Below are positions 7,025-49,749 of a stretch of 64,000 nt of DNA, one piece after another. Every line of letters starts with the position of its first letter. Positions within the stretch are counted from its first letter, which is position 1. Below the pieces are notes generated by a model, which ran no database searches, had not been told where the DNA came from, and saw nothing but the letters and a program-made list of their open reading frames with translations. Origin of the DNA: Magnetococcales bacterium (GTDB taxonomy: Bacteria > Pseudomonadota > Magnetococcia > Magnetococcales > UBA8363); NCBI GenBank assembly GCA_015228975.1, contig JADGCN010000002.1, positions 6,323 to 70,322 on the forward strand, in the 5' to 3' direction. Position numbers and translations under genes: made by a program.

Positions 7025-7156
7025 CCAAACCCCTCCTTTATACAGTCGATGGCGGTGTGATTGACGACTGACATGTTATTATTGGTTCAATAATTGCAAA
7101 GACGCCTCCGTTTGGTGTAATCGTCATTGACCCAGTCCAGTCCTGAGAATTTTCCC

Positions 7157-10100
7157 ATGAAAAGAATGCTTCTAACTTTCGGAATTCTGACTCTCTGTTT
7201 TTCGATTGTCATGGGCTCAGATGCCTTGACTTTAAGTAACTTATCCGGCCAATCACTTGCCAATATTAATGATCCAAAAACATTGAAAATGTTACAAGGG
7301 GCCAAGCCCGGTCTCGTCAATCCCCAGGACTATCGCCGGGACAATCGGCGCAGGGATAAACCGGATACCGTCAAAAATCCAGAGGAAATACCAGCAGAAC
7401 TTCTGGAAACTCCAGAAAAAAAACCAGCGCCATTTTATGTTGAGACCTATCCGGAAGATTTGCCCATTTTCGGTCAGGATCTTTTTGTTGACAAGTACAG
7501 AAATGCCCCTGTGAAAGACGTGACTGCCACGGTTCCAGGTGATTACGTCATTGGTCCAGGTGATACGTTTCGCCTGTTGTTTTCCGGCAAGGACTTTAAG
7601 GAAGTTGAGGTTGCCGTGGATGGTGAGGGGATGGTTTTTGTTCCCGATATGGGGATGTTCCCCGTGACTGGTTTGCGGTTTAACGAATTTAAAACCTTGT
7701 TGGTCAGTCAAACCAAACAAAAATTGATTGGTTATGAATTGACGCACGTTGCACTTTCTTCGCTACGTACCATGAAAATTTTCCTGCTTGGCAACGTAAA
7801 AAATCCGGGAACGCATCAAGTTCCCTCCCTGACCTCCCTGATGCAATTGTTGATTGAAACAGGGGGTATTCTTCCCGTTGGTTCTTTGCGTAATGTGCAG
7901 ATCAAACGCAACGGCGTGCCCGATAAAACAGTCGATCTTTATAATGTTTTATTGAGTGGTAAAGGAGATGGCGAGATTCGCCTTCAGGATGGTGATACGG
8001 TGTTTGTGCCAATGATCGGCAATACCATCGCCTTGACCGGAACTGTCAAAAAACCAGCTATTTATGAAATCGCCAAGGAAGAAACGATTGCTGATATTGC
8101 CCAGCTTGCTGGAGGATTTCTACCTAACGCCCAGTTTATCAAAATAGAGCGTATTGATGATAATAAGAATCGTACCATCGTCGATCTTAATTTAGCGAAA
8201 AAAGAGAGTTTGCGTACCGCTATCAGATCGGGTGATATCGTCCACGTTTTACCATCGTCCGACTCCAGAAAAGAGACGGTCACTTTGACGGGCTATATTG
8301 ATCGCGGCGGGGTGTTTCAGTGGTATAAAGGGATGAGGTTGTCCGATATCATTCCCAGTCCCGATATTTTGTTGCCCCAGACCGACCTGTCGCACTACTT
8401 GGTCGTTCGCACCAACATGAAGAATCGTCAACTGGAACCGCTCTCAGCCAATCTGGAGCGTGCCCTGAGTGATCGGGCTTCGGCAGACAATATTCTTCTC
8501 CAACCCAATGATCAGATTCAATTGTTCAGCATCAGCGCCGATCATTCTAAAAATTTGCAGTCTGTTGTGGAAAAATTACGTAATCAAGGGAGATTCAACA
8601 ATACCGACAAGCTCGTGTCCATTGAGGGCAATGTTCGTTTTCCAGGGGAATACCCTTACGTTCCCAATATGAGTTTGAAACAGTTGATTATGGCTTCTGG
8701 GGATATGCGTTCCAACACCGATCTGGACTATTGTCTGATCGTCCGCTCCGATTATATGGGGCGCATCCAACCCTTTTCAGTTCGTTTGCGCGAAGTATTT
8801 GGTATGGAAGGTGTTGCAAAGAATATAGCTCTTAAACCAAAGGACAAAATTTTGGTTTTTACGCTTGATGAAAAACAAAAAGTAAAAAATTCTGACAATA
8901 ATAGTGAAAAAGGTATGCCAGCGGATGAATCGGAAGAAAAGAACACAGTTTTTTCCGGAACATCAAAAGAGAACTCTCGCAAAATTCCAGGACAAAATGT
9001 GCAAGGGTTGGACATCGATCAATGGTCGATCGATGCCTTGAAAAAGGCCAAGGACAAAAAAGGGAATATCCAGGAACAAAACGAGGAACATGAGGAAGCG
9101 GATGGACAAAAACTTCCCAAGCAACCTGGTAGTGCAAAAGGCGTTGATATTGCCCTGGAAAATGAAGAGATGGAAAATGTACTGGTAGGGTTCCTCCTGA
9201 AGAATTCCACCTCCGATCCCGTCGAAAACCGCAGCAATGAGGCCTATCGCAACCAATTGGTCGATCCAGCATTGCATGAGAATCAAAGTCGACTTTTGCA
9301 ATTGCTGCTGAAAAAACGGGACCTGCGGCAAATGGTGCGAGAGGAGTTGCAACCCGTTAAAGAAAAAGCGGTCAAATCGCGCCAAGCCTTGTTAAAACCC
9401 GTTTTAGAAAAATTGCAAGATCAGGCCACCAAAGAATTTCCAGCGCAGATCATTCAAATTGGTGGTGCGATCCGCTATCCCGGCAAATATCCCCTGGAGC
9501 CTGGAATGCGTATCAGCAACCTTTTATTGGCGGGTGGTGGATTGGCAGAACCGGCTTATCATCTTGAAGCCGAAATCAACCATTTTGAGGTGGATGACAA
9601 TCAGTTCACCAGAATGCATCATGCCAGCGTCAACCTGTTTAAAATTACACAGGGTGACCCCACCATGGACCAGGCGTTGCAGCCCTATGATATTATTATT
9701 GTCAAACAAAATCCTAAATGGGGCGACATTAATTCGGTGATGCTGGAGGGCAATGTGCGCTTTCCCGGAATTTATCCGATTCAAGCTGGGGAAAGATTAA
9801 CCCAGGTGCTAAAAAGGGCCGGTGGCCTTACAGAATTGGCTTATCCCGAAGCCGCCGTGTTTACCAGAACAAAGCTTATCGAAAAAGAAAAGCGGGAGAA
9901 CGAAAGTCTGATCGCTCGCATGGAGACCCAATTGGTTCAGTCCCAGTATATGAAGCAGACTGAGAAAGAATCGGATACCCTCAATCCCAACTCGGCCATG
10001 ATCCACGAGCTTATTGCCAAACTTAAAACGGCAAAACCGATTGGTCGATTGGCGATTGATATGAACCAAGTCATGAGCAATCCCGGTGGGCAATACGATG

Positions 10101-10501
10101 TCATGCTTCAAGATGGTGACCATCTTATTATTCCGCAGCGGACTGATGAGGTCACTGTCATGGGCGAGGTCTATTTTCCCACTTCCCACCAATTCATTGG
10201 AGACAAGGATCTGGAAGCCTATATTCAGGCCAGTGGTGGTTATACCAGCAATGCGGATGATAGCCGGGTTTATGTCGTTCGGGCGGATGGCCGGGTGACT
10301 TCGAAAAAACAGCCCGGGAAATTTCCTGTTGTCGGCTGGTTTTCGTCCAGCAACGCCATTACAATCGGACCGGGGGATACCGTTGTTGTCCCTATGAATG
10401 TCGAAAAAGTGGCCCCCATGGTTCTTTGGAAAGATATCACCCAAATTTTGTATAATTTGGCCGTTACTTCCTCCGCCCTGAAGTCGGCTGGTGCCCTGTA
10501 A
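7157..10501 (+). CDS. Very large outer-membrane polysaccharide export (OPX/Wza-KpsD-like) protein with multiple SLBB domains
   Basis: Signal peptide MKRMLLTFGILTLCFSIVMG from ATG 7157. Poly_export-like block (YVIGPGDTFRLLFSG..VAVDGEGMVFVPDMGMFPVTGL). At least five repeats of the SLBB pattern (G.V..PG.Y......L..L...AGG). Contains a charged low-complexity insert at about 8866-9440. Confidence 0.85.
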   Translation: MKRMLLTFGILTLCFSIVMGSDALTLSNLSGQSLANINDPKTLKMLQGAKPGLVNPQDYRRDNRRRDKPDTVKNPEEIPAELLETPEKKPAPFYVETYPEDLPIFGQDLFVDKYRNAPVKDVTATVPGDYVIGPGDTFRLLFSGKDFKEVEVAVDGEGMVFVPDMGMFPVTGLRFNEFKTLLVSQTKQKLIGYELTHVALSSLRTMKIFLLGNVKNPGTHQVPSLTSLMQLLIETGGILPVGSLRNVQIKRNGVPDKTVDLYNVLLSGKGDGEIRLQDGDTVFVPMIGNTIALTGTVKKPAIYEIAKEETIADIAQLAGGFLPNAQFIKIERIDDNKNRTIVDLNLAKKESLRTAIRSGDIVHVLPSSDSRKETVTLTGYIDRGGVFQWYKGMRLSDIIPSPDILLPQTDLSHYLVVRTNMKNRQLEPLSANLERALSDRASADNILLQPNDQIQLFSISADHSKNLQSVVEKLRNQGRFNNTDKLVSIEGNVRFPGEYPYVPNMSLKQLIMASGDMRSNTDLDYCLIVRSDYMGRIQPFSVRLREVFGMEGVAKNIALKPKDKILVFTLDEKQKVKNSDNNSEKGMPADESEEKNTVFSGTSKENSRKIPGQNVQGLDIDQWSIDALKKAKDKKGNIQEQNEEHEEADGQKLPKQPGSAKGVDIALENEEMENVLVGFLLKNSTSDPVENRSNEAYRNQLVDPALHENQSRLLQLLLKKRDLRQMVREELQPVKEKAVKSRQALLKPVLEKLQDQATKEFPAQIIQIGGAIRYPGKYPLEPGMRISNLLLAGGGLAEPAYHLEAEINHFEVDDNQFTRMHHASVNLFKITQGDPTMDQALQPYDIIIVKQNPKWGDINSVMLEGNVRFPGIYPIQAGERLTQVLKRAGGLTELAYPEAAVFTRTKLIEKEKRENESLIARMETQLVQSQYMKQTEKESDTLNPNSAMIHELIAKLKTAKPIGRLAIDMNQVMSNPGGQYDVMLQDGDHLIIPQRTDEVTVMGEVYFPTSHQFIGDKDLEAYIQASGGYTSNADDSRVYVVRADGRVTSKKQPGKFPVVGWFSSSNAITIGPGDTVVVPMNVEKVAPMVLWKDITQILYNLAVTSSALKSAGAL

Positions 10502-10729: not shown

Positions 10730-12793
10730 ATGAAAAATTTGTGGTCGGAGGAAGCGGCGCAACAATGGGTTGTTCAATACGCACCTCGTTGGGGTGAACC
10801 TCTGGCCCTGAGAACTTACTCAAGCAGACTGTTGGGCAGTCATCCCGAATTGGTACTTCATGGCGGTGGTAATACCTCGGTCAAAGGGGAAGTCACGGAT
10901 ATTTTTGGTCAAACCATAGCCGGTGTTTTTATCAAGGCTTCTGGGGTCAATCTGGCGCAATGCTTACCAACCGATCACCCGGCACTCAACCTGAATGCCC
11001 TGCAGAAACTCACATTGTTGGACACTCTGTCGCCCTCTGCCATGGTGAATCAATTACGTTTAAACCTGTTTGATTCAGGCGCTCCGACTCCTTCGATTGA
11101 AGCGTTGCTGCATGCTTTTCTGCCCCCGGTTTTCATTGATCACACCCACCCTGACGCTCTCCTGACACTGGGCAATCAACCGGATGGTCGTCAGCGTCTT
11201 ACAGATGCCTTGGGGTCCGATTGTATCATTCTGGACTATATCCACCCTGGATTTGAATTGGCCAAAGCGGTTCTTGCCGCCTGGAAGGCCCAACCTAACG
11301 CCACCGGGATGGTTTTGCTGCATCATGGTCTGCTGACCTGGGGCGATTCGGCGCGGGAATCCTATGAAGCGACGTTGGCGCTGGTGAATCGTGCCGAACA
11401 GGCCATTAACGCCGTTGCCCAAAAAGTATTGCCGGTTCCAACACCGGCAGCCCTCTGGTGGGAATTGGCTCCTGTCCTTCGCGGTGCTTTGGCCGTACAT
11501 GCCGAAGATTCTAACCGTTCGTATAAAAGTTATATCGTACGTTCTTTGGATGATTCGGAAACCTTGAGTCTGTTGCACCAACCGGATGCCGCCAAGCTTT
11601 TTGTCAGTGCTCCATTGACCTCGGATCATCTGATTCGTTGTAAGCCATGGCCATTGTGGATTGATAATCTTGGGGAAATCAGGGAGGCGGTACAACGTTA
11701 CCGGGAAGACTACCACAATTATTTCCTGCGCCATGCCGCATCGTTGGAAGGTTCGGTGCAGCCATTGGATTCATCGCCCCGGGTGGTATTGATTCCTGGT
11801 GTTGGTGGGTTTGTTGCGGGAGAAAGTGCCCATTTGGCCGATGTCGCCCGGGACATTACCCGACAAACTCTCAGGGTCAAAACCGATATCGCCCGCATGG
11901 GGAGTTATTGCGGTCTTGAGGAACAACACCTGTTTGCCATGGAATATTTTTCATTGCAGCATGCCAAGCTTGTCCGCCATGAAACATCAGGACTTCAGGG
12001 GTGCGTGGCCATCGTGACCGGGGCTGCCGGGGCGATTGGTTCCGGTATTTGTCGCAGGTTGCTCCGGGAAGGGGCGCATGTTGCCGCAACCGATTTACCG
12101 GGGGATGCCCTGGACACTCTGGTGCAGGGGCTCGCCAAGGGAACACCCGGTCGCATCATGGGCGTGGCCATGGATGTGACGGATGAAGTCTCAGTGGCCC
12201 AAGGGATCCAAAAAATTGTACAAACGTGGGGGGGAATCGATTGCGTGATTATCAATGCGGGACTCGCCCATGTGGCTCCTCTCGCATCCTTGGGATTGGA
12301 AACATTTCGTAAGCTGTACCGCGTCAATGTCGAAGGAACCTTGCTGTTGTTATCGCATATGGCCAGGCTGTTTGAACGGCAGCGAACCGGGGGGGATGTC
12401 GTGGTGATTTCGACAAAAAATGTTTTTGCCCCGGGAGCCAGCTTTGGTGCTTACAGCGCCACCAAGGCGGCATCGCACCAACTGGCTCGCATTGCGTCTC
12501 TGGAACTGGCCCCCTTGGATGTTCGGGTCAACATGGTGGCCCCGGATGCCGTTTTTTCGGATGGTGCCCGTAAATCGGGGCTGTGGGCTGAAGTCGGTCC
12601 CGACCGGATGCGCGCCCGCGGCCTGGATGAAGCGGGGTTGGAAAATTATTATCGCAATCGTAATCTTCTGAAAGCCCAGGTGACTGCTGACCATGTTGCC
12701 AATGCGGTGCTGTTTTTTGTGACCCGGCAAACCCCCACGACAGGTGCGACCATCCCGGTGGATGGGGGGTTGCCCGATGCCACACCACGATAA
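10730..12793 (+). CDS. Bifunctional class II aldolase / short-chain dehydrogenase fusion protein
   Basis: 687 aa. N-terminal aldolase/adducin-like half (LVLHGGGNTSVK..VFIDHTHPDA). C-terminal SDR half (AIVTGAAGAIGSG..NAG..YSATKAA). Architecture matches rhamnulose-1-phosphate aldolase/alcohol dehydrogenase-type fusions. Confidence 0.85.
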   Translation: MKNLWSEEAAQQWVVQYAPRWGEPLALRTYSSRLLGSHPELVLHGGGNTSVKGEVTDIFGQTIAGVFIKASGVNLAQCLPTDHPALNLNALQKLTLLDTLSPSAMVNQLRLNLFDSGAPTPSIEALLHAFLPPVFIDHTHPDALLTLGNQPDGRQRLTDALGSDCIILDYIHPGFELAKAVLAAWKAQPNATGMVLLHHGLLTWGDSARESYEATLALVNRAEQAINAVAQKVLPVPTPAALWWELAPVLRGALAVHAEDSNRSYKSYIVRSLDDSETLSLLHQPDAAKLFVSAPLTSDHLIRCKPWPLWIDNLGEIREAVQRYREDYHNYFLRHAASLEGSVQPLDSSPRVVLIPGVGGFVAGESAHLADVARDITRQTLRVKTDIARMGSYCGLEEQHLFAMEYFSLQHAKLVRHETSGLQGCVAIVTGAAGAIGSGICRRLLREGAHVAATDLPGDALDTLVQGLAKGTPGRIMGVAMDVTDEVSVAQGIQKIVQTWGGIDCVIINAGLAHVAPLASLGLETFRKLYRVNVEGTLLLLSHMARLFERQRTGGDVVVISTKNVFAPGASFGAYSATKAASHQLARIASLELAPLDVRVNMVAPDAVFSDGARKSGLWAEVGPDRMRARGLDEAGLENYYRNRNLLKAQVTADHVANAVLFFVTRQTPTTGATIPVDGGLPDATPR

Positions 12794-12808: not shown

Positions 12809-15800
12809 ATGTATTCGCCCCGTCGCGACAAAATCAGATTATTGGATGAAGAATTGTTTCACAATCTGACCTCGTTTTCCGAACTTGAGGCCAGAATTTT
12901 CAGTTTGGATGATCCAGAACGGCGGAAAAGTGCTTTTGCCATTTTTGCCGAAGGTTTTTTGGCCTTGCGTTCCATGCCAAGAAGCGCGGAAATATTGCCA
13001 ACCCATCGGTTGCATGATAATCATTATCATAATCTTTGTATTCCCAAGACCTTGACCGGGGTTGATGGGCTTTTGTTCATGGCCGAGAGTGGTTGTCATC
13101 CCTACCATCTCCTGTTGCATGATCCACGATCGGAAGTTTCTGCGGAAACAATGGCCCCGTTTGCGCGTCTTTTGGAGCAAAGCCATTGGCCCCTGCTGTT
13201 TACCAATCTGCGTCAACTTCCCATGCATTGGTTGGAGCGTGATGGATTCCAACACATCACCGGAAATCAACTGGATGGATTGACCATTCCATGGTTTTCC
13301 TATTTTTTGCGTTGGTTGCAAAGTGGTACGCCATCCCGGCGCCCCACCTTGCCGTCAGAACCCATGAGCGAAATGATGCAACGCGTTCGCGCAATTGTTC
13401 CGGGTGTGGCCACGGTAACCTTACCGGATGGACCCATTCAGGATGAGTGGCTGTTTCACCTGGCGGTGAGCCCTGGACCCAAACGAATGACCTTGATTTT
13501 GACCCCGGGGGCGGGCCGCATCCTCGATCTGTTGCACCACTGGCGCAGACTGACGCCTCCAGTGCCATTATCATGCCTTTGGGTTGTTTCGGGAAAGGAA
13601 TGGGATAAAAGTGAAAATCTTCTTCCCGGGGAGATGGATTTTCTTCGGGTCCAGGATGTTGCAGGCATCCGTCACTTTTTGACCAGTCGTGATGGCAATC
13701 CCAGGATTCTCTGGGCGACTTTCGCCGCCATTCCCATGTTGAAAAAGGCGCAATTGGGACTATCTCCCTTTGAGCTGACAGTGGTACTCGACAGTCATGT
13801 GCTGGCCCAACAGAGCAAATTGTATGAAACACTTTTGGCGCAAGAATTTCCCGTATCGCGGTTGCGCCTGCATGTGACTTCATTGCCACGCTGCACGACC
13901 CCATTTAAAAAAAATCGCCAGGAGCAGCCCGTTACCCTGTTCGCCATGGAAGACGATCAGCGGTTTGGTATTCCCGTTCGCTTCAGCATTGCGCCGAAAC
14001 ACCGCGAATCCTTTGCGGGGCGGGATTGGAAATTGGTTGTGGTACCTATCCAAAGTGACATGTTGCATCATCCAGAAACCTGTGTGGTCCATGCCCTGTC
14101 GCGCTCGCGTACAATTCAGCCCAACATCCATCATGTTCACATTCCACTGGATTGGAATGTTTCCGATACGGTTTCGGTGTCTGACCTCGGGGAGTTCGTT
14201 ACGAGAACCAGTAACACAGCATGGGATGTCCTGACTTGGTCTAAAGAGGTGCGCCATTTTTCCCGGTTGGATCGGGCACTCCTGCGTATTGCTTCGATTC
14301 CTGGCCCTGTTCGCCATCTGGCAACGTGCGATTTGGCCTTGTTATCGTTTGATCCCGGTCAGGTCACTGCCTCGATTTACGAACGTCTGAGCGCCATCAT
14401 GCGTCCCCATGCGGAGGCACGCACGGGGATTGCCGCTTCCTTGGTGGTGATTGATCACATGTTTGAAGATGCCGAATCTTCCATGCGTCCCGACCTCGCT
14501 GCCCTTTGTCTGGTGGTGCAAGCGTTGCGCGATATGGATCCCGAATTTGATCAGGCATTCTTTGAGGCGCGCCGGCATCGAGGTCGTACCGGTTCATTCA
14601 ACCTGGAACCCCTGCGGCGTTGGTTGCACGTTGCCGATTCCGGCACCAATGACGGTGCGAACAAATTATTGGAATGGTTGCTGACCACCCTGACTTCTCC
14701 ATGGGATCAATCTTTGGGAGAATTCATGCGCTTCCATGAACAATGGGGTTCTGCCGAGGTTGCGGAAGCGGGGGATGATCATTCCCAACTTGCGGCTTGG
14801 GTAGAAGTGCAACGCCGGGCGCGGGTCAAAGGCTGGCTGACTCGGGAACACATCACGCAACTGGATGCGTTGGGATTTGTCTGGGATCCGAAAAAATTGG
14901 CCTGGGAACGCATGCTGGCTGCGTTGAAAATCTTTCAGGCCCGTCATCGGCATTGCAATGTCCCTGATCCCTATCCCGAAGTGGATGCTTTGCCCCTGTG
15001 GGTCAAGCAACAGCGCCGGGATCTCCTTCAGGGACGTTTGCTTCCGGTTCAGAAGGAACAATTGGATGCCCTGGGATTCATTTGGGATCTGGAAGCCTGG
15101 GAATGGGAACAGTGTTATAGCCGATTGCTCCGATTGAAGCCTGTGACCAACCCTGCCAGGATCACCGTGCCATGTCACCAGGATCCTGAGTTGGGGGAAT
15201 GGGCTGATCGTCAGCGTCTGTTATGGCAAAAAGAACGTTTGGATGAAAATCGACGCCAGCGCCTGGAGGCCGTTGGTTTTGTCTGGGATCTGGAGGCGAC
15301 CGAATGGCAAGAGCAATTTCAAAGATTCCGGATGATCGTGGTAACATTGGGTCGTTGGCCGGGCATCGATCATCCGATTTTGGATGAATTGCGTCCATGG
15401 TTGGAAGAGCAACGACAATTAAGGGCCAAAAATCGCCTGCATCCCGCCCGTTGTAATCAACTCAATGCATTGGGTTTCATCTGGTCAACACGACAAGAAC
15501 AGTGGCAACGGTTGTTTGATCGCTTTGTCTCTTTCAAACGACTCCACGGCCATGGCCTCGTTCCTGAGCGGTATTCCGAGGATCCAGAGCTCTCTTCCTG
15601 GGTCCAGGATCAACGGCGGGACTATCGGCGTCGGGTCATGGTTGAAGAGATCCATAGCCGATTGGCCATGGTAGGCTTCGTTTTTGATCCACAAGCCTAC
15701 CATTGGGACAGGATGCTGGCTCTCTTTGAACGTTACCAACGTCACCACGGTGATGATGATCCCGTGGCGGTGAACCCGCTGTACGCCCCTCTGAAAGATT

Positions 15801-16912
15801 GGATGGCCAGTCAACGGCGCATGCAGATGTCGGGTCGGTTGCCGGAAACAGAGCGGGACAAACTGACCCGGTTGGGTTTTGTTTGGGACCCGGCGGCCAA
15901 ACATGAACAAACAATGCTCAATGCCTTACGTCGTTTCATGGAACAATACGGTCATTGTAACATTCCTGCCGATTACAACCACCCGCCCACCTTGTCGAGC
16001 TGGGTCCGAAAACTTCGGACCCGCGGGATAACGGGCGGATTATCCCAGGAATTGATTGATCATCTTGATCTGATGGGGTTTATCTGGGACGCACGCGAGG
16101 CCGAATGGCAGGAAATGTTTCATGCCCTGAAGCAATTCAATCAGGAACGCCACCATTGTATTGTTCCCGATCCTTACCCGGTTCATCCCAGGCTGCCGGC
16201 TTGGGTCAAAAATATTCGTAAAATTTATAAAAACAATGCATTGGATAAGGAAAAAACGGAAAGCCTCAACCAATTGGAGTTTGTTTGGGACGAAAAGGCC
16301 GTTTTTTGGGAAGAAATGTTTGTCGCCCTGGCAGCGTATCATGATCGATTTGGACACAGTTTGGTGCCGGAAAATGATAGCCAACATGCGCGACTGGCTT
16401 GGTGGGTTGCGGCGCAGCGCAAGGCCAGGGCTGGGGGGCAGTTGGATGAAAAACAAATCCAACGCTTGGATCGGCTCCATTTCGTCTGGGATATCCATAG
16501 TGCCCAATGGTTGGAAATGTACCGGGAGTTGTTCTTCTTCCACCAACGTCACGGCCATTGCCTGATCAAAAATGATTCTCCACATCACACCCGCTTGAAT
16601 GACTGGTGTGCCATTCAGCGCAAGGCCAGAATGATGGGAAATCTATCCGAGGAAAAACAGGCGCGTCTCAACACCTTGGGGTTCATTTGGGATGCCAAGG
16701 AAATGGTCGCTGCCGAAATGCTGATGTACCTGGAACAGTATAAGGAACGTTTTGGTCATTGTAATGTTCCGGCACAATGGCCAGAAAATCCACAATTGGG
16801 ATTATGGTTGCAGTTCCAGCGCCAATCCTATCAGAAAGGTCAACTGGATCCTGAACGGCGCTCCAAATTGGAAGAGATGGGAATCCTTTGGGATGAGGGA
16901 GATAAACGGTGA
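12809..16912 (+). CDS. Helicase-associated (HA) domain repeat protein with a degenerate nuclease/helicase-like N-terminal half
   Basis: 1367-aa uninterrupted ORF. The C-terminal 736 aa are 11 tandem copies of about 67 aa of the pattern W..ML..L..F....GHCNVP.......L..WV..QR......G.L......L..LGF.WD (HA domain, PF03457-like). The N-terminus LTSFSELEAR..ERRKSAFAIFAEGFL resembles the head of COG4889-type predicted helicases. Confidence 0.85.
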   Translation: MYSPRRDKIRLLDEELFHNLTSFSELEARIFSLDDPERRKSAFAIFAEGFLALRSMPRSAEILPTHRLHDNHYHNLCIPKTLTGVDGLLFMAESGCHPYHLLLHDPRSEVSAETMAPFARLLEQSHWPLLFTNLRQLPMHWLERDGFQHITGNQLDGLTIPWFSYFLRWLQSGTPSRRPTLPSEPMSEMMQRVRAIVPGVATVTLPDGPIQDEWLFHLAVSPGPKRMTLILTPGAGRILDLLHHWRRLTPPVPLSCLWVVSGKEWDKSENLLPGEMDFLRVQDVAGIRHFLTSRDGNPRILWATFAAIPMLKKAQLGLSPFELTVVLDSHVLAQQSKLYETLLAQEFPVSRLRLHVTSLPRCTTPFKKNRQEQPVTLFAMEDDQRFGIPVRFSIAPKHRESFAGRDWKLVVVPIQSDMLHHPETCVVHALSRSRTIQPNIHHVHIPLDWNVSDTVSVSDLGEFVTRTSNTAWDVLTWSKEVRHFSRLDRALLRIASIPGPVRHLATCDLALLSFDPGQVTASIYERLSAIMRPHAEARTGIAASLVVIDHMFEDAESSMRPDLAALCLVVQALRDMDPEFDQAFFEARRHRGRTGSFNLEPLRRWLHVADSGTNDGANKLLEWLLTTLTSPWDQSLGEFMRFHEQWGSAEVAEAGDDHSQLAAWVEVQRRARVKGWLTREHITQLDALGFVWDPKKLAWERMLAALKIFQARHRHCNVPDPYPEVDALPLWVKQQRRDLLQGRLLPVQKEQLDALGFIWDLEAWEWEQCYSRLLRLKPVTNPARITVPCHQDPELGEWADRQRLLWQKERLDENRRQRLEAVGFVWDLEATEWQEQFQRFRMIVVTLGRWPGIDHPILDELRPWLEEQRQLRAKNRLHPARCNQLNALGFIWSTRQEQWQRLFDRFVSFKRLHGHGLVPERYSEDPELSSWVQDQRRDYRRRVMVEEIHSRLAMVGFVFDPQAYHWDRMLALFERYQRHHGDDDPVAVNPLYAPLKDWMASQRRMQMSGRLPETERDKLTRLGFVWDPAAKHEQTMLNALRRFMEQYGHCNIPADYNHPPTLSSWVRKLRTRGITGGLSQELIDHLDLMGFIWDAREAEWQEMFHALKQFNQERHHCIVPDPYPVHPRLPAWVKNIRKIYKNNALDKEKTESLNQLEFVWDEKAVFWEEMFVALAAYHDRFGHSLVPENDSQHARLAWWVAAQRKARAGGQLDEKQIQRLDRLHFVWDIHSAQWLEMYRELFFFHQRHGHCLIKNDSPHHTRLNDWCAIQRKARMMGNLSEEKQARLNTLGFIWDAKEMVAAEMLMYLEQYKERFGHCNVPAQWPENPQLGLWLQFQRQSYQKGQLDPERRSKLEEMGILWDEGDKR
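14702..16909 (+). repeat. 11 tandem, diverged, roughly 201-nt coding repeats (HA domain array)
   Basis: Each unit ends in LGF(V/I)WD or a variant (ALGFVWD, ALGFIWD, AVGFVWD, ALGFIWS, MVGFVFD, RLGFVWD, LMGFIWD, QLEFVWD, RLHFVWD, TLGFIWD, EMGILWD). 2208 nt divided by 11 gives about 67 codons per unit. Confidence 0.85.
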
Positions 16913-17949
16913 AAAAGGGGGATCCCATCGGTGGCCAGGTTACTGATCAGTCAACGATACTTTCAATGATTCACCAGGCGTGTGCTGAAAGCCAACAGAT
17001 ACGTCTACTTATGGACCATCAGTTCCTGGAATATGTCACCCATTTTAAAACTGGTACCGAACCGGATGAATTTTTATATCTCCATGTCGGGGGTTTGGTG
17101 CCCCGCGTTGGCAATATTAAAATTCGCAAAAGTCATGTGATTACCATCACCTTCCTGATTGCCGACCGTGTTGCGGAAACCAAGGTACGCTTTCTGCGGG
17201 CGGTGACCAAAGAGATGTTTCGTCTGTCTTTTCCCAAATATGTGAAAATGATGGCGCAAAAGCGTTCAGCCGTCCGGGTCGCTCCCGGGTCCGCCATGAA
17301 GATTTCACTCACCATCATCCGGTCCGATGGGATGGAATTGGCGGCCCAATTGGTGGACATCAGTGCCGAAGGCTTGTCATTCCTCTTTGAAAAATCAGAG
17401 TACTACCTCCCCAAGGAGGCATCCGTTCAAGTCGTGCTTTCATGTGAGGATGGATGCTTCCACACTACTGTGGATGCCATGGTTGTAGGTCATGTATCGC
17501 GGGATATGGTTGAAGGGTATCGGGCCAAATTTATTTTTACCACTGTGGACCAAAGCATGCGGATCGGGGAATTGGTCGCTGGCATCCAAAGCCAAATTTT
17601 ACAACATCGTATCCAGGTATCTGGTGAGGAAAAGATCAAAACCTGGGAGGTGAAAACATTGGGTAAGGAGGATATTTCGACCTCATCCTTTGAGGATTGG
17701 CATGATCGATATTACAGTCAATGGATGGATAAAGCTTATTTTGCCGCATGGATCGGAAACATCCTGAGTATGTGCGCGGGATTCTTGATTGCCTTGAATC
17801 TTTATGTTCATTGGGCGTATCCCCTTTTAATCGTGGCCTCATTGGTGATGGGGATGGGATTATCGGCACGGCATCGCTCGTTTCCTCTTTTGTTTGTTGG
17901 TTTCATTCTGTTATTAGGCGTCATTGGAACCATGCGTGTGTGGTGGTAA
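16909..17949 (+). CDS. Membrane-anchored PilZ-domain (c-di-GMP receptor-type) protein
   Basis: 346 aa. The GTG start overlaps the upstream stop (GTGA). PilZ signature RxxxR (QKRSAVRV) followed by DxSxxG (DISAEGLSF). Hydrophobic C-terminal helices (AAWIGNILSMCAGFLIALNLYV, LLIVASLVMGMGL, LLFVGFILLLGVIGTM). Confidence 0.75.
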   Translation: MKKGDPIGGQVTDQSTILSMIHQACAESQQIRLLMDHQFLEYVTHFKTGTEPDEFLYLHVGGLVPRVGNIKIRKSHVITITFLIADRVAETKVRFLRAVTKEMFRLSFPKYVKMMAQKRSAVRVAPGSAMKISLTIIRSDGMELAAQLVDISAEGLSFLFEKSEYYLPKEASVQVVLSCEDGCFHTTVDAMVVGHVSRDMVEGYRAKFIFTTVDQSMRIGELVAGIQSQILQHRIQVSGEEKIKTWEVKTLGKEDISTSSFEDWHDRYYSQWMDKAYFAAWIGNILSMCAGFLIALNLYVHWAYPLLIVASLVMGMGLSARHRSFPLLFVGFILLLGVIGTMRVWW

Positions 17950-44336: not shown

Positions 44337-45101
44337 TTATGCATCGACCGTGAAATGGACCCGTTCTCCCGTTTGGGCGTTGAACCGGTGTTGCGCGCTC
44401 CCTTGATTGACGATGATTTCGATGGTTCCAAAACCTCCTGCAACCAATGCCGCTTCTCCCAGGGGTACCGAGGCAAAGGTGTTGACCAATGTGCCACACG
44501 CTTGTCCGTGAATCGTTCCCCGCAGTGTCTTTCCTGCCACCACGGATTTTGGCAGGGCGGTAATCAGGTTGCCGTATCGGTCACTCAACATGATGGTTGC
44601 GTCAAATCCACCCGCGACGACCGACCACCCCGGGTCGTTGCACCGGACCGGGTCATGCACCGGCGTTCCAAGATTTTCCAAGGTTTCTCCGTTGTGGAGC
44701 CTGGCGGCTACTGGGGCGAACAGGTCACGTCCATGAAAGGTAGGTGCTGCATGGGCATTCCTTGGCAGGGATACCGCTTGCCAATCGGCATTCTGGAAAA
44801 TGGGTGTTAAAAGTCCATTATCTGGGCCTACATAAAAGCTTATGCCCGAGCTGATGGCCAAACCCCGTCGCGAGCTTCCCACCCCGGGATCAACAACACA
44901 GAGCCATATGGATGGCGCTGGCATGATTGGCAGGCACCGCTCAAGCAACCAGGCACCGCTGGCAATGGAAAACGGTGGCAGGTCATGGTACAGGTCGATG
45001 ATTCTGGCTTCAGGGGCATAACGATGTAACACCCCTTTGACTTGCCCAACATAGGGGTCCGAGGTTCCGAAATCGGTCAACAGGACAAAGGGGATATTCA
45101 A
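44337..45101 (-). CDS. SAM hydroxide adenosyltransferase family (DUF62, chlorinase/fluorinase-like) protein
   Basis: 254 aa. The LLTDFGTSDPYVGQVKGVL N-terminus is typical of DUF62. The TTG start overlaps the stop of the upstream gene (TTGA). Confidence 0.82.
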   Translation of the reverse strand: MNIPFVLLTDFGTSDPYVGQVKGVLHRYAPEARIIDLYHDLPPFSIASGAWLLERCLPIMPAPSIWLCVVDPGVGSSRRGLAISSGISFYVGPDNGLLTPIFQNADWQAVSLPRNAHAAPTFHGRDLFAPVAARLHNGETLENLGTPVHDPVRCNDPGWSVVAGGFDATIMLSDRYGNLITALPKSVVAGKTLRGTIHGQACGTLVNTFASVPLGEAALVAGGFGTIEIIVNQGSAQHRFNAQTGERVHFTVDA

Positions 45102-46066
45102 AGCGGGGGGGTGGTCGGGTTATTTTGGACCAGGGGATCGGTCTTAAGGCTGTCTTGCAGGGCAATAAACCCGGCTTTGCGTATAATTTCCTGACCTTGC
45201 GATCCCTGTACCCAATCGATAAAAGGTTGTGCCAGGGAGACACGCGAATCCAGAACCAGGAAAAACAAAGGTCGCGCCAAAGGATAAAGACCCTTGTGGG
45301 TAAAGTCGGCAGTTGGGGGGACGCAGGCGGTTTCCTGGGCATCATCGCCGGCAACACAGACGGTTTTGACGTCGTTGGTGACGGTTGCCATACTGGTGAA
45401 AGCGATGGCGCATGGGGAAAGCGCAACCTTTTCCATCAACTTTTCTGGCTGGCGGATGGTGATCAGGTTGGCGTGAAAATGATTATGCTCCTTTAAAACC
45501 GTTTCACGGAAATAGAAATAGTCACCCGAATTGTTTTTCCGCGATATCCTTTGGATGGTGTTGTTATCGCAACCGGGTACCTCCACGCCAAGATCGGACC
45601 AGCGGGAATAACCGCCAGAGTTACCGAAGATGCGTGTCAACTGGCTCATGGTCAAGCCATTGAGGGGGTTGCTTTTGTGTACGACGATGGACAAGGCATC
45701 CATACCGATGATGTGTGTTTTAGGAAGTTTCCCGGAACGTTGAGATATCAGGCGAATTTCTCTTTCTTTCAGGTTGCGGGTGGTAACGGCGATATCAACA
45801 TGGCCGTTGATGAGGGCGGCAATACCATTGCCCGATCCCCCACCGTCCACTTCAAAAAAGACCCCGGGATTATTGGCATGATAGATCTTGGTCCAGGCCA
45901 GGACCACATCGACCATGGCATTGGAACCTTTGATGTGAATGAGATTCACGGCTTCCGAGGAACCTTGCGCCGGGTAGGGGCCGAGGAGAAGGGCTGCCGT
46001 CAGGTTCAGGAATACGAAGAGAATTGTGCGGAGTGTCGGGTGCCTTGTGATGTGTTGTGTTCCCAT
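45098..46066 (-). CDS. PstS-like periplasmic substrate-binding protein (orphan, no pstCAB adjacent)
   Basis: 322 aa. Signal peptide, then IKGSNAMVDVV..VDGGGSGNGIAALINGHVDIA..R (PBP_like_2 pattern). The start lies 2 nt after the upstream stop. Confidence 0.8.
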   Translation of the reverse strand: MGTQHITRHPTLRTILFVFLNLTAALLLGPYPAQGSSEAVNLIHIKGSNAMVDVVLAWTKIYHANNPGVFFEVDGGGSGNGIAALINGHVDIAVTTRNLKEREIRLISQRSGKLPKTHIIGMDALSIVVHKSNPLNGLTMSQLTRIFGNSGGYSRWSDLGVEVPGCDNNTIQRISRKNNSGDYFYFRETVLKEHNHFHANLITIRQPEKLMEKVALSPCAIAFTSMATVTNDVKTVCVAGDDAQETACVPPTADFTHKGLYPLARPLFFLVLDSRVSLAQPFIDWVQGSQGQEIIRKAGFIALQDSLKTDPLVQNNPTTPPL

Positions 46067-46068
46067 TG

Positions 46069-48291
46069 TCAGGCGACCGCCAATTCCAGGCTATTGGTGT
46101 CCAGGGTACAGTGGATATGCAGTGCGGCATCCTGGAGCAATGGTTTGTCGAAGGATTGGCTGGCGATGAAAAATTGCTGGATCGTATCGCTGATGCCAGC
46201 CAAGGCCCGGTACGACTCAAGGAAACGGTCGCGGTCGTAATGGGCAAACGGTTCATCGAGCATCATGAACTGTGCATGCGCTTGGGTGCGGGCGGTTATG
46301 GCCTGGGTCAAGGCGAAACGCAACGCCAGCATTAATTGACGCCGCAGACCGCGTGAGGTCTCCAGCATATCGACATAATCATTCTTGCTGGGGGAGAAGG
46401 CGGACAGATTCAATTTGTCATCGACGCGCAAATGTTGATAGCGGCCATGGGTGAATAAAGGTGCCGATTTGGCAATCTGTCTTTTAAGTTCATGGCTGAA
46501 GGCGAGGGCGATCTCATGAATGGTTCCGTGAATCAGCCGCCGTCCCAGGGTGCGGACATCGACGCCATGGGAGGTTTGGCTGTAACTCGCCGTGAGTTCT
46601 TGGTGACGCGCCTGCAGGCTTTGATGACGCTGATGGCGTTGTTGTTCGTGACGGATTTCCTGATCCAGAATGGCCAGATTGTCGGTGACGGCACTCAGTT
46701 GATCGCGGGCCTGTTGCAGGGCGTCATCCTGTCTTTTGAACATGCCCTCCAGCACCGAATGCAAACGATCAGCATCTTCTTTGAACTGGGCAATCAAATG
46801 GAGCAGCGCCTGTTCGTCGCCCATATTGCGACCGTGGGATTGCATCCAGAGCTGCAAAGTTTCCTGCCATTCGACCTTGTCGCCCAGAGAATTCAGTCGG
46901 GCGATCTGTTGGCACAGGGTGAGCTTGGCGCTCTCTTCCAAAGCGGCGACAATTTTTTGTTCCGATCCGGCACGTAATTGCAGGTTGTAACGCGCCTGCT
47001 TGTTATGGGAACGGACGGCCAGGCTGTTGATGAATTGACCGAGGCCAAAAAAGGAAATCATAAGAAAAAACAAACCCGTTCCCATGGCGGCGTGCAGGTG
47101 GATTGTCTCCATGTGCGGCAGTAGCTTGGCCAGCGATTGGGCTATGGTACTGATATGGGAATTGTGGGAAAAAAAGGAGAGGGCGAATCCGCCAAGACCC
47201 ATGGGGAGACCCAGGGGAAGAAAAACCAAAAATTTTACAATTCCCCGGCGGCTGGTCAGGGATGCTCGGGTGTCCTCTTCCGTCAAGGCTTTCTGCTGAC
47301 CGGCCAAAGTTTCACCATCGGTGCCCGAAAGCCAGTGGGAACGAGACAGTCTGTCCTGGTCGGCCCTGTTGACGATGGCGTTGAAGGCCTGGAGATTTTC
47401 GATGGTTTGTTGCGCTTTGCTGCGAATCCTGGCGACCATTGCGGCGGCTTCGCCCAGGTCCAGTGTGGTAAGCGACGAAAGGGAGGATTGCAGGCTTTTT
47501 AAATTGTGATGCCAAATGGGCAAAGTGGCTTGCCGGCCTTGTTCGATTGCGTTGCTCAGATGACCGGTTGCCACCTGAAAACCGGATCGCAAGACCTCTA
47601 TCTGTCGGGTTTGGTTGCTGATGGTCGTTTCGAGACTCTTCTGCCGTTCCGTGTTCACAGCAAACTTTTGTTGCAGTTCCGGCAATAGTTGGGGTTGCAG
47701 ATTGAGATCGGTCAACTCCTGGGTGACACCGGTGAGTTCGGCATTGAGGCGACTTTGTTGATCCCGTCCCGATCTGATTTCCGCCTCCAAATGTGCCGAA
47801 AGGTTTTCAAGGTCATCAACACCGGCAACCATGCGGACGATGGCCTCCGGGTTTTCCCCCTCCGGTGACCCCTGGGACAGATACGCTGTTTCGAGAAAAT
47901 GAGAGAATTCCATACCGGCGGCTTGGATCATCGCTTCGTCGACTTCCGTTGCCCCGGCGAGGGGAACCTCCTGGTCTTGAACGATCAAACGAGCCAGGTT
48001 GTGCGGTTCTTGGCGGTTGAATTGGCGATGGATCGTGACGTTTTGTCCGCTGGAACTGATGAAATCAAGGGAAATGGAACCTTGCGCAGTGCCCCAATGG
48101 AGGATTTTTTCGATCTGGTTGTGGTCCAGGTTGGCCGTGCGACCAAAAAGGGCCAGGCAAATGGTTTCGAAAATGGCCGACTTGCCTGATTCGTTATCGC
48201 CACTGATGACGATGTTCCCCCGGGTGGGGAAAGAAAGATCCAGGTGCGCGAAGCGCAGAATGTTTTCGGCCTTCAGGTGGCGGATAATCAT
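46069..48291 (-). CDS. Rad50/SbcC/SMC-like AAA ATPase with a central transmembrane hairpin (YhaN-like architecture)
   Basis: 740 aa. N-terminal Walker A ISGDNESGKSAIFETICLALFG, long Q/E/L-rich coiled-coil arms, two hydrophobic helices at aa 351-374 and 401-426 (nt about 47014-47241), and a C-terminal Walker B QFMMLDEPFAHYD. Confidence 0.8.
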   Translation of the reverse strand: MIIRHLKAENILRFAHLDLSFPTRGNIVISGDNESGKSAIFETICLALFGRTANLDHNQIEKILHWGTAQGSISLDFISSSGQNVTIHRQFNRQEPHNLARLIVQDQEVPLAGATEVDEAMIQAAGMEFSHFLETAYLSQGSPEGENPEAIVRMVAGVDDLENLSAHLEAEIRSGRDQQSRLNAELTGVTQELTDLNLQPQLLPELQQKFAVNTERQKSLETTISNQTRQIEVLRSGFQVATGHLSNAIEQGRQATLPIWHHNLKSLQSSLSSLTTLDLGEAAAMVARIRSKAQQTIENLQAFNAIVNRADQDRLSRSHWLSGTDGETLAGQQKALTEEDTRASLTSRRGIVKFLVFLPLGLPMGLGGFALSFFSHNSHISTIAQSLAKLLPHMETIHLHAAMGTGLFFLMISFFGLGQFINSLAVRSHNKQARYNLQLRAGSEQKIVAALEESAKLTLCQQIARLNSLGDKVEWQETLQLWMQSHGRNMGDEQALLHLIAQFKEDADRLHSVLEGMFKRQDDALQQARDQLSAVTDNLAILDQEIRHEQQRHQRHQSLQARHQELTASYSQTSHGVDVRTLGRRLIHGTIHEIALAFSHELKRQIAKSAPLFTHGRYQHLRVDDKLNLSAFSPSKNDYVDMLETSRGLRRQLMLALRFALTQAITARTQAHAQFMMLDEPFAHYDRDRFLESYRALAGISDTIQQFFIASQSFDKPLLQDAALHIHCTLDTNSLELAVA

Positions 48292-48482
48292 GACTTTTGA
48301 CCTCCTGATCCCATGCGCGACAGGACAAAGGCGCGGGCATCTTCAAACAAGACTGGATCGAAGGATGCATCGGTGGTTTCCAGGCGACGCCGTTCGCGAT
48401 TACAATAGGCTTCAAAGGCGGTAGCTGGCGTCAGGAGTCGGAAGTTCCGATCTGAGACTTGAGAAGGTTTGTTTGCAGACAT
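48288..48482 (-). CDS. Small hypothetical protein translationally coupled to the SMC-like ATPase
   Basis: 64-aa ORF whose stop overlaps the ATPase start (ATGA). No family recognised and the Shine-Dalgarno is weak. Confidence 0.45.
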   Translation of the reverse strand: MSANKPSQVSDRNFRLLTPATAFEAYCNRERRRLETTDASFDPVLFEDARAFVLSRMGSGGQKS

Positions 48483-48633
48483 GAGGGGACCCCAACAGGT
48501 TGTTGCTTACGCGACCGATCCGGGACTTTAATCAACAGTGTACTCAAGGTTGCTCCGGGTCAACAGGTATAACGTGGCATCGATGGAAAAAAGTGTCCTT
48601 AAGACCCTGTCGTGGCATCAGTCGGGTGGCGTG

Positions 48634-49749
48634 TCAGGGTGAAGAGGCGGCATGTCCGACCAGGTGTACCGGGGCATAGCCGCTTCCCGGCTCGCGCAAC
48701 GTCGTGATCTGGCCCTGATAAATACGGGCCGCGACTCCCAAGATGTGATGGCGGTAGACGAAAAATCGAAAATCACTTTTCACCGGTTGCTCCCGGTTCG
48801 GGCAGGTGAGCGTGCTGGGTGGTGCCAGACGTTGCACCAATGTTTGTTCCGGGTTGAGGGCGTTAAAGCGGGTTTTGGAAATATTGCGCCCCAGGAGAAC
48901 ACCCTTGCCGCCATGAGAACTGACAGGTTTGAACACCCAGTGTCGCCGTTCTCGCCAGACCTCCGCGGCATCCAGGTTGTCCAAGGTTCGGGTTTGCGGG
49001 GTGATGGTGAGCAACATCCGACGTTGTTCCGGGGTGAGGTCCAAGGTTGCCAGGATATTGGCATCACTCCACAGGATCATGCGTCGTTTGTCGGCCAGGA
49101 GGCCGTAGGTTCGGGGGTTGGGGGTGAGGCAGACCTTGCGCTGTAGAAAGGCGGAGCGCACACCGGCCATGGCGGGGGATTCCAGATAAAAATCGCAATG
49201 GCGATTGTAGATCAAATCAACCACTCTGCCCTGGTAGAGCAAAGAATCATTCCGCCACTCCAAGGCTTCGGGGGTGACAATGGCGGTTTGGATGCCATTC
49301 CGGGTGAACTGATCGGCAAACGCTTGCATTTCTGGATAGAGGAATTGCTCCTCTGGTTTGTCGTCCACGATCACCACATGTTGGGGCTTGTTTTTCTTCC
49401 CGTGGGAAAAACGTGATATTTCCTGTTGGAAGCAATCCATGACGGCATTGCGACGACCATGGCAGGGGAAGGTTGTGCCCTGGGCGCGCCAGGCGAGCAA
49501 TGCGCCACCAGCGTTGGTGTTGACTTCGATAAGGCGTGGCCCCTCGGGTGTGAGGTGGAAATCATAGCCCATCATGACCGATTCATGTCCCGGGTCATGG
49601 CGTGCCGTCTCGGGAACCAGGGGTGCGACCCGTTGCTGATAGTCGGGGGAGAGGTGCAGCGTGTGCAAGAGGCGGATGAAGCGGATCATGGTTTTGGCGT
49701 GCGCCATGGGAAGGGTAACCGGGCAATCGGCGGAATTGAGTTCAGTCAT
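48634..49749 (-). CDS. ATP-grasp-fold protein (glutathionylspermidine-synthase / circularly permuted ATP-grasp-like), tentative
   Basis: 371 aa. MGYDFHLTPEGPRLIEVNTNAGG resembles the D-F-x-L-x-x-x-G-P-x-L-(I/L)-E-x-N motif of pre-ATP-grasp families. The start overlaps the upstream MFS stop by 4 nt. Confidence 0.55.
   Translation of the reverse strand: MTELNSADCPVTLPMAHAKTMIRFIRLLHTLHLSPDYQQRVAPLVPETARHDPGHESVMMGYDFHLTPEGPRLIEVNTNAGGALLAWRAQGTTFPCHGRRNAVMDCFQQEISRFSHGKKNKPQHVVIVDDKPEEQFLYPEMQAFADQFTRNGIQTAIVTPEALEWRNDSLLYQGRVVDLIYNRHCDFYLESPAMAGVRSAFLQRKVCLTPNPRTYGLLADKRRMILWSDANILATLDLTPEQRRMLLTITPQTRTLDNLDAAEVWRERRHWVFKPVSSHGGKGVLLGRNISKTRFNALNPEQTLVQRLAPPSTLTCPNREQPVKSDFRFFVYRHHILGVAARIYQGQITTLREPGSGYAPVHLVGHAASSP

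Follow-up and report, generated by a model that had tools for sequence, protein, structure and literature searches.

A Rad50-like ATPase family with a predicted transmembrane hairpin apex and a small constant partner protein in Magnetococcales and other bacteria

A 64,000-nucleotide (nt) stretch of the genome of a Magnetococcales bacterium (contig JADGCN010000002.1; hereafter the window) encodes a 740-residue ATPase with a Rad50-type head, in which a membrane-spanning hairpin is predicted to take the place of the zinc hook of Rad50 or the hinge of SMC proteins, together with a 64-residue partner protein whose gene lies immediately upstream. This arrangement of ATPase and partner is kept across at least five bacterial phyla and hundreds of species-level genomes. 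We tentatively propose that the two proteins form a membrane-anchored ATPase clamp of the SMC/Rad50 type, regulated by the partner and with DNA as its default cargo, a reading to which we give a probability of about 0.4. The initial annotation of the ATPase gene had recognized its head and its hydrophobic apex; the partner gene, the breadth of the family, the exchange of His for Gln at the H-loop and the acidic character of the head go beyond it. The coordinates of all features are collected in Table 1, and residue positions follow the full-length numbering of the 740-residue ATPase.

The ATPase has a split ABC head that is complete and belongs to the lineage of Rad50, SbcC and YhaN. The protein begins at an ATG codon with AGGAGG 9 nt 5' of it, and its N-terminus aligns with Rad50 starting at residue 1. 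Walker A and the Walker B head lie where the initial annotation had put them, at opposite ends of the protein. In an alignment of 42 diverse homologues, Gly31, Gly36 and Lys37 of Walker A are invariant and Gln140 of the Q-loop is nearly so; in the C-terminal half, Ser646, Gln652, Asp679, Glu680, Pro681 and Asp686 are invariant and Gly648 nearly so. Pfam matched AAA_23 in the N-terminal half, with sub-threshold matches to SMC_N over residues 4–711 and to AAA_27 (19.6 bits against a threshold of 22); one homologue, P0008, has a precomputed AAA_27 match. No Pfam match to SMC_hinge was found in the ATPase. Among the NCBIfam models, Rad50 equivalogs ranked first, at no more than 58 bits against cutoffs of 700–1087, and the SbcC model scored 15 bits against 920. 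A profile built from the Magnetococcales homologues and compared with the PDB aligned both head halves with Rad50 of Methanocaldococcus jannaschii (3aux, E 1e-24), with SMC1A heads at E ~0.02 and RecF at 0.2. Moreover, a Foldseek search with the full AlphaFold2 (AF2) model of the ATPase, which is a shallow one, returned Rad50 of Chaetomium thermophilum (7zr1, E 1.3e-10) as the best whole-length match, followed by Smc5/6, the Lamassu protein LmuB, condensin and MukB. The head departs from Rad50 at the H-loop, where Gln712 aligns with the His of the ‘ITHH’ motif of M. jannaschii Rad50; Gln is nearly invariant at this position in the family. Loss of the H-loop His lowers hydrolysis in ABC ATPases, and the substitution therefore suggests that this enzyme may hydrolyze ATP slowly, in a switch-like manner.

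At the midpoint of the protein, the initial annotation had noted two hydrophobic helices (TM1 and TM2, for transmembrane helices 1 and 2) and had suggested that the arms tether the heads to the membrane; both ideas are supported by sequence features across the family. The mean Kyte–Doolittle hydropathy, calculated in a 19-residue window with a cut-off of 1.4, rose above the cut-off solely at TM1 and TM2 in the window ATPase, with a maximum of 1.76. TM1 of this protein contains a GxxxG motif (Gly361–Gly365). A hydrophobic pair occupies the same position in all nine full-length Magnetococcales homologues, which are 30–98% identical. In a wider sample of 131 top profile matches that passed a length filter, had recognizable head motifs and showed two central hydrophobic windows, both windows exceeded 1.4 in every sequence (131/131), usually with values of 2.0–3.0; homologues reach 2.0–3.1 over 20–35 residues. 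These sequences carry ~4.1 Lys plus Arg in the 15 residues before TM1 and ~3.7 in the 15 residues after TM2, and only ~1.3 in the gap of ~28 residues between the hydrophobic windows. Basic flanks around a gap poor in Lys and Arg point to an N-in/C-in hairpin in which the two halves of the head are cytoplasmic and ~25–30 residues form an external loop. These family-wide sequence features support the prediction that the apex is a membrane-spanning hairpin obeying the positive-inside rule and standing in place of the hook or hinge. CxxC is absent throughout the 740 residues; in SbcC-type controls, most sequences had CxxC at mid-length and none had a hydrophobic segment. Neither the hairpin nor its loop contains an invariant residue among the 42 diverse homologues, which is more in keeping with an anchor or dimerization element than with a channel or specific receptor.

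The hairpin is joined to the head by two helical arms. In the AF2 model, the N-arm consists of helices 157–195, 201–249, 256–273, 279–321 and 328–372, with a predicted local distance difference test (pLDDT) score of ~90, and each arm spans ~190 residues. Antiparallel pairing of the arms would be putative; their helices are long, and the best whole-length fold matches of the ATPase are Rad50 and SMC proteins. Core residues filled heptad a/d positions more often than in shuffled sequences in the N-arm (z 4.2) and the C-arm (z 2.2), and did not do so in the heads. The heptad-like character that the initial annotation had assigned to two spans of about 300 and 260 residues was thus borne out, although the lengths were not, as those spans include globular head. 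Trp475, Trp482, Gly487 and Asp492, in the membrane-proximal part of the C-arm, are invariant in the Magnetococcales alignment. A short subfamily of ~620 residues (P0010–P0012 and P0079–P0161; loci L079, L081, L083 and L084), found mostly in Gammaproteobacteria including Thiodiazotropha, also keeps the partner gene.

The partner gene shares the sequence ATGA with the ATPase gene, its stop codon overlapping the ATPase start by 4 nt, and the same layout was found on three divergent Magnetococcales contigs. Its distribution was analyzed in 84 loci, among them 21 Magnetococcales loci with enough downstream sequence to be informative on that side and 62 loci outside the order. In 81 of the 84, a jackhmmer search seeded with the 64-residue protein of the window placed a partner homologue directly before the ATPase gene, in most cases overlapping it by 4 nt; the other three loci are cut by a contig end. 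The two genes are probably translationally coupled. Partner homologues share a core of ~50 residues with the consensus F.l.....eF......E..Rlr.....fD..l..eAv.LVl.kL, and they are acidic, with a median net charge of −3 and a median pI of 4.9. AF2 predicted helix 19–37, a five-residue loop and helix 43–56, with pLDDT 94–96 over the core blocks (residues 21–50). The partner matched no Pfam family and no PDB relative, and Foldseek returned nothing below E 6; among 34 partner homologues, no Pfam family matched more than one member. Longer open reading frames (ORFs) that include the partner domain carry no Pfam domain and are probably over-extended. A partner profile had its best PDB matches in the HMG boxes of SOX-17/18 (E 0.2–1.1); HMG-box identity was rejected because these matches are non-significant, the partner is acidic and it has only two helices.

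The family is large. A word-indexed search retrieved nine full-length homologues, all from Magnetococcales metagenome-assembled genomes (MAGs), and an exhaustive profile search widened the set to 9732 representatives at E ≤ 0.001, with 341 representative clusters reaching E ≤ 1e-30. The 150 best-ranked profile matches are mostly end-to-end and fall into size classes of ~740–770 and ~600–650 residues; nearly all of them show two central hydrophobic segments, usually with maxima of 2.0–3.1. In a pattern scan with one genome per GTDB species, at least 528 loci encode a relative of the ATPase, and the best 80 of these belong to Magnetococcales, Binatia, Gammaproteobacteria (Chromatiales, Ectothiorhodospiraceae and Thiodiazotropha), Phycisphaerae/Planctomycetota and Desulfobulbaceae (Desulfobacterota). 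Members with a source name are annotated merely as ‘AAA family ATPase’, ‘AAA 23 protein’ or ‘exonuclease SbcC’. The sole domain fusion found is P0077 (881 residues), in which DUF7662 (E 7e-12) follows the head at the C-terminus. On two contigs of the MAG nQXH2bin1 (loci L014 and L015), the partner, ATPase and PstS-like genes occur in apparently identical form, probably through an assembly or binning duplication and not true paralogy.

Beyond the pair itself, no gene family is conserved next to the module family-wide, as judged from de novo clustering of flanking ORFs and from Pfam assignments for 68 genes flanking the module in other lineages than Magnetococcales, where no family occurred in more than two. 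Neighbors are lineage-specific: acyl-CoA dehydrogenase and short-chain dehydrogenase/reductase genes in Binatia; and, in Gammaproteobacteria, genes for a pyridoxal phosphate-dependent decarboxylase of the ornithine/diaminopimelate/arginine type, an RNA methyltransferase-domain protein, ribonucleotide reductase, an HrpB-type helicase and a class I valyl-type tRNA synthetase. Often, the genes that flank the pair are read from the other strand, indicating a self-contained two-gene operon. The initial annotation had remarked on the lack of an SbcD-like nuclease, and this lack proved general: phmmer with a YhaO-like query against ORFs within ~7 kb detected no SbcD/YhaO-type metallophosphoesterase in the 84 loci, and none is present in the window. 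Around the module, GC content is uniform and matches that of the neighborhood. By reading of translations, the window surroundings include what we take to be dapA, folB/folK, smpB, genes for c-type cytochromes, rsmB and engB; a domain scan added F1 ATP synthase subunits and purD. Synteny is kept in Magnetococcales while the ATPase diverges to 30% identity, and also in at least 18 Binatia genomes. Given the uniform GC content, the housekeeping context and synteny that outlasts sequence divergence, we see in the module a vertically inherited housekeeping unit and not part of a defense island.

In the window, a gene for a PstS-like protein begins 2 nt after the ATPase stop codon. Its product matches Pfam PBP_like_2 (E 1.8e-32, 113.6 bits), has an N-terminal signal-like segment and scores under the PstS cutoffs (161 against 206.6 bits for TIGR02136; 38 against 205 for TIGR00975). 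No pstCAB genes are adjacent to it in the window. The PstS-like gene adjoins the ATPase gene in 20 of the 21 informative Magnetococcales loci, several times with a 4-nt overlap, and is absent from all 62 loci outside this order. In Magnetococcales the upstream side of the module carries a block made up of DUF2782, an MFS_1_like transporter and an ATP-grasp-like protein, and the PstS-like link persists where this block is lost. We infer that the PstS-like gene is translationally linked to the module in Magnetococcales only. In locus L004 (9449..14223), from one Magnetococcales genome, genes for an ABC_tran ATPase and a DUF3708/BPD_transp_1 permease (PstC/PstA-like) lie no more than 5 kb beyond the PstS-like gene, an arrangement that hints at a dispersed phosphate-transport neighborhood in the order. 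On the far side of the PstS-like gene in the window, a gene for an S-adenosylmethionine (SAM) hydroxide adenosyltransferase (DUF62-type SAM hydrolase) overlaps its stop codon by 4 nt and is thus apparently co-transcribed with the module in this genome; it occurs in none of the 84 related loci, Magnetococcales included. Upstream of the partner, the window encodes a 371-residue protein with sub-threshold ATP-grasp matches only and many invariant residues, which is 52–66% identical in other Magnetococcales and always lies between the MFS_1_like transporter and the partner gene.

A weak promoter-like block, read by eye, lies in the 150 nt before the partner gene and is partly conserved in loci L005, L007 and L008; a consensus scan made no call there, and the promoter/terminator scan gave counts at the level of shuffled sequences. 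CTGTTG occurs three times within 75 nt upstream of the partner gene, against 0.1 expected per 158 nt. The triplet is found only in the window and in the 95%-identical relative L005, and the surrounding block, CCTGTT(G/T)AC.CGGA.CAACCTTG.GTACACTG, which has a promoter-like look, is partly kept in L007 and L008.

Table 1 Features of the module and of its surroundings in the window.
Feature	Residues	Position (nt)	Strand	Remarks
Partner gene	1–64	48288..48482	−	64 residues; stop codon within ATGA shared with ATPase start (4-nt overlap)
ATPase gene	1–740	46069..48291	−	740 residues, stop codon included; Rad50-like with predicted TM-hairpin apex
Head, N-terminal half	1–156	47824..48291	−	Pfam AAA_23, E 2.6e-13; aligns to M. 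jannaschii Rad50 residues 3–214
Walker A GDNESGKS	31–38	48178–48201	−	Read in sequence
Q-loop Gln140	140	In N-terminal head half	−	Nearly invariant in 42 homologues
N-arm	157–350	47242..47823	−	Five helical segments, the last running straight into TM1
TM1 IVKFLVFLPLGLPMGLGGFALSFF	351–374	47170..47241	−	Hydropathy peak 1.76; position kept family-wide; presumed cytoplasmic flank rich in Lys/Arg
Loop	375–400	47092..47169	−	Predicted helix 377–389; probably periplasm-facing; AF2 pLDDT 50–63
TM2 AAMGTGLFFLMISFFGLGQFINSLAV	401–426	47014..47091	−	Continuous with C-arm helix (AF2 helix 396–453)
C-arm	427–613	46453..47013	−	AF2 pLDDT ~90; one long helix 492–613
Head, C-terminal half	614–740	46072..46452	−	Aligns to C-terminal half of M. 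jannaschii Rad50
Signature-motif equivalent ETSRGLRRQ	644–652	46336–46362	−	
Walker B and D-loop FMMLDEPFAHYD	675–686	46234–46269	−	
PstS-like gene		45098..46066	−	PBP_like_2; begins 2 nt after ATPase stop; lineage-specific
Promoter-like block CCTGTTGACC...GAGTACACTGTTG		48533..48567	−	Read in 150-nt gap upstream of partner gene; weak
CTGTTG, three copies		48492..48565	−	Upstream of partner gene
SAM hydroxide adenosyltransferase gene		44337..45101	−	Overlaps PstS-like stop
ATP-grasp-like protein gene		48634..49749	−	371 residues
Wza-like export protein gene		7127..10501	+	1124 residues
Aldolase–dehydrogenase fusion gene		10730..12793	+	
HA-repeat protein gene		12809..16912	+	1367 residues
PilZ-domain protein gene		16909..17949	+	

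Based on these data, we propose a working mechanism for the partner-regulated clamp. Within the inner membrane, the TM hairpins of two ATPase protomers would associate, replacing the zinc hook or hinge, and the protomers would pair again through ATP sandwiched between the heads, the relevant residues being conserved (Lys37, Gln140, Ser646, Asp679–Glu680 and Asp686). Heads, arms and membrane would then enclose a compartment, and Gln712 in place of the H-loop His would make hydrolysis slow and switch-like. The partner may, like the helix-loop-helix Rad50-binding domain of Mre11, dock on the head or on the base of the arms, and it may tune head engagement without contributing a nuclease. The cargo would most likely be DNA held or handled at the membrane, as homology with Rad50 and YhaN/SbcE suggests; of all the steps, this one is the weakest. 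In Magnetococcales, the module would additionally be linked at the level of translation to the secreted PstS-like protein.

Several observations weigh against this proposal, most of them against its DNA step. Homology alone ties the module to DNA, and no nuclease, helicase or recombination gene is found among the conserved neighbors. In Rad50–DNA structures, the lobe-I strand-loop-helix touches DNA; this element has a net charge of +3 in M. jannaschii Rad50 and a median of −3 in the ATPase family (n = 160). The N-terminal head half as a whole has a median net charge of −5, compared with −2 to +6 in SbcC controls and +7 in M. jannaschii Rad50, and the partner is acidic like the head. Upstream of the module in the window there is no LexA-type box of the forms CCT-N10-AGG, GTTC-N7-GTTC or CTG-N10-CAG, and in 17 orthologous loci such boxes occur as scattered, chance-level matches; SOS regulation was rejected on these grounds. 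Because lobe I, the N-terminal head half and the partner are acidic and no LexA-type box is present, we hold the DNA step loosely. The structural model also gives pause, as AF2 pLDDT is below 50 in the heads and 50–63 in the hairpin and loop. Finally, the N-arm of the short subfamily is ~108 residues shorter and its C-arm just ~20 residues shorter, which argues against a simple coiled coil of equal-length arms all the way to the membrane. The membrane-adjacent part of the C-arm, with Trp475, Trp482, Gly487 and Asp492, is therefore probably a separate module and not coiled coil.

The same acidic surfaces would also fit a membrane tether or remodeler with no DNA role, built on the plan of atlastin and mitofusin, in which ATP-driven dimerization of heads from protomers in one membrane or in two facing membranes would pull, cluster or bridge membranes. 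The basic DNA-binding patch of Rad50 is lost, no DNA-related neighbor is conserved, and the hairpin is conserved in hydrophobicity and not in sequence, as for an anchor. In addition, several host lineages (Magnetococcales, Chromatiales, Ectothiorhodospiraceae and Planctomycetota) are known to include bacteria with internal membranes. However, Binatia and Desulfobulbaceae carry the module and are not known for such membranes, the correlation between lineage and membranes is at most an apparent one, no ABC ATPase is known to act in this way, and the nearest relatives by sequence, Rad50 and YhaN, are DNA enzymes. We therefore consider a tethering role unlikely, and somewhat less likely again its boldest form, in which the module is no DNA machine at all and represents the first ABC-ATPase-based membrane tether or remodeler, gated by the partner and bridging or shaping membranes. 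If true, this form would account for the acidic head and partner and for carriage by formers of magnetosomes and chromatophores and by planctomycetes. A transmembrane coupling device, in which the external loop contacts the PstS-like protein and its occupancy is relayed through the arms to the heads, or in the reverse direction, for example in phosphate sensing or scavenging, would fit the position of the gene for the secreted PBP_like_2 protein, which in 20 of 21 informative Magnetococcales loci comes right after the ATPase gene (2 nt apart or overlapping by 4 nt), even where upstream synteny is lost. The PstS-like protein also conserves the motifs GSN, GGGSGNG and NNSGD/T, which we take to be of the oxyanion-binding type. 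Yet the gene is missing from the 62 loci outside Magnetococcales, and the PstS-like protein is therefore no part of the core mechanism; coupling could apply in that order only. With a loop that is short and poorly conserved across the family and a PstS-like protein under the PstS family cutoff, this possibility appears improbable even so.

An anti-phage or anti-plasmid system would cast the ATPase as an SMC-like sensor comparable to those of Lamassu, Wadjet, Gabija and Septu, the TM hairpin as a membrane-disrupting effector and the partner as an inhibitor or adaptor. PADLOC models for mad3, LmuB, PtuA, DndD and GajA did match the head weakly (best E 6e-12), LmuB was among the Foldseek matches, and a two-gene layout with a small partner recalls toxin–antitoxin-like pairs. 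The PADLOC matches, however, do not exceed 44 bits, are confined to the head/N-terminal P-loop region and fit no single system, while the partner and the scanned neighbors match no defense model. The surroundings are housekeeping with GC content in line, synteny extends across the whole order down to 30% identity and to at least 18 Binatia genomes, and no mobile-element or defense genes recur nearby; we accordingly give a defense function little credence. Least credible of all is a soluble SbcC/Rad50 protein, with the hydrophobic helices buried in a dimerization domain or with an overlooked hook, the alternative that the initial annotation had itself raised against its proposal. The maxima of the window protein (1.76) are only moderately above the usual threshold of 1.6 and AF2 confidence is low in the hairpin, as such a protein might show, but the hydropathy of homologues (2.0–3.1 over 20–35 residues), the basic flanks and Lys/Arg-poor loop in 131 sequences, the lack of CxxC that most SbcC controls have at mid-length without any hydrophobic segment, the lack of a nearby SbcD gene and scores far under the Rad50 and SbcC family cutoffs all speak against it. 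The evidence from hairpin, neighborhood and context thus disfavors both of these alternatives, and the partner-regulated membrane clamp remains the reading that we carry forward.

Elsewhere in the window, four genes on the opposite strand drew our attention. One encodes a 1367-residue protein whose only recognized domains are HA repeats (‘helicase associated’, Pfam PF03457; E 1e-135), at least 10 of them in tandem; the start of a PilZ-domain protein gene overlaps its stop. The others encode a 1124-residue Wza-like polysaccharide export protein with many SLBB domains and, next to it, a fusion of a class II aldolase and a short-chain dehydrogenase.

Among known systems, the YhaN type is the nearest outgroup of the family, and it has the central hydrophobic pair, in agreement with the resemblance pointed out in the initial annotation. 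SbcE of Bacillus subtilis is reported to have a unique conserved central domain that is insoluble when expressed and whose first half is hydrophobic, and to act with the nuclease SbcF in double-strand-break repair and competence (PMC2811018). The split ABC head of the SbcC lineage, the long heptad arms and the hydrophobic center are common to YhaN/SbcE (PMC2811018) and the ATPase described here. AAA_27-bearing proteins of 789–978 residues are among the best-scoring non-members (E 3e-38 to 1e-11), and in the YhaN-type proteins P0163, P0165 and P0175 the central hydrophobic pair comes without CxxC, as in the window ATPase. Comparison with the YhaN type by hhalign gave a probability of 99.7 over the N-terminal 140 residues, with the region before the Q-loop close to P0163; profile-to-sequence comparison did not show homology beyond these 140 residues. 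Proteins of the YhaN type (P0175, P0165 and P0163) are ~790–980 residues long with nearly contiguous hydrophobic helices, whereas members of the present family have ~740 (short subfamily ~620) residues and a gap of ~28 residues. Upstream of P0165 lies an overlapping metallophosphoesterase gene, the YhaO–YhaN (SbcF–SbcE) layout; the ATPase family lacks the nuclease in the 84 loci and has the 64-residue helix-loop-helix partner in its place. Judged from sequence, the window family is a sister-like variant of the YhaN type, with the same apparent apex idea, shorter arms and a longer TM loop.

Rad50 and SbcC are the closest solved structures to the ATPase by sequence and by fold. Walker A, the Q-loop, the signature Ser, the Walker B Glu and the D-loop are common to both, as are helical arms, putatively antiparallel in the ATPase, although those of the ATPase have about half the length of bacterial SbcC arms. 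In contrast to Rad50/SbcC, the ATPase has no zinc hook and no Mre11/SbcD, carries Gln at the H-loop position and has an acidic lobe I. The size and shape of the partner resemble those of the helix-loop-helix Rad50-binding domain of Mre11 (3qku-type structures), an analogy that may indicate a similar docking mode. SMC proteins proper are defined by a hinge and a kleisin, while the ATPase has no SMC_hinge match and its two-helix partner has no winged helix. The defense proteins LmuB of Lamassu, PtuA of Septu, GajA of Gabija and mad3/mad8 of MADS combine an ABC head with coiled-coil insertions and match the ATPase weakly, but a TM-hairpin apex is not theirs; defense systems of the SMC-like kind come with effector partners and a defense-island context, neither of which the present module has, its inheritance being vertical and syntenic. 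Atlastin, mitofusin and bacterial dynamin-like proteins show the same order of parts, namely a dimerizing nucleotide-binding head, a helical stalk, a TM hairpin with a short loop and a returning helix, with both termini cytoplasmic. They are dynamin-superfamily GTPases, whereas the ATPase head is of the ABC type and is assembled from both termini, so that the likeness involves no relation in sequence or fold and concerns the working principle only.

Pfam and NCBIfam contain no model for the partner or for the family as such, and no description of either was found in the full text searched, although the family may have been named earlier in the 2020 classification of ABC ATPases (Krishnan et al., Nucleic Acids Research). 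The apex architecture has a precedent in YhaN/SbcE; the large Gram-negative family, the constant partner, the missing nuclease and Gln712 appear undescribed in the literature searched. SMC/Rad50 ATPases are understood as soluble rings shut by a hinge or hook; here, the apex would instead serve to anchor the protein in the membrane, no nuclease is encoded nearby and the sole constant partner is a 64-residue protein. The little-understood YhaN/SbcE type thereby gains a large Gram-negative counterpart of simpler composition, in which the cargo of a putative membrane-closed SMC-like ring becomes approachable by experiment. If that cargo is DNA, the module is a candidate nucleoid–membrane tether; if it is not, ABC coiled-coil ATPases would gain a new kind of work.

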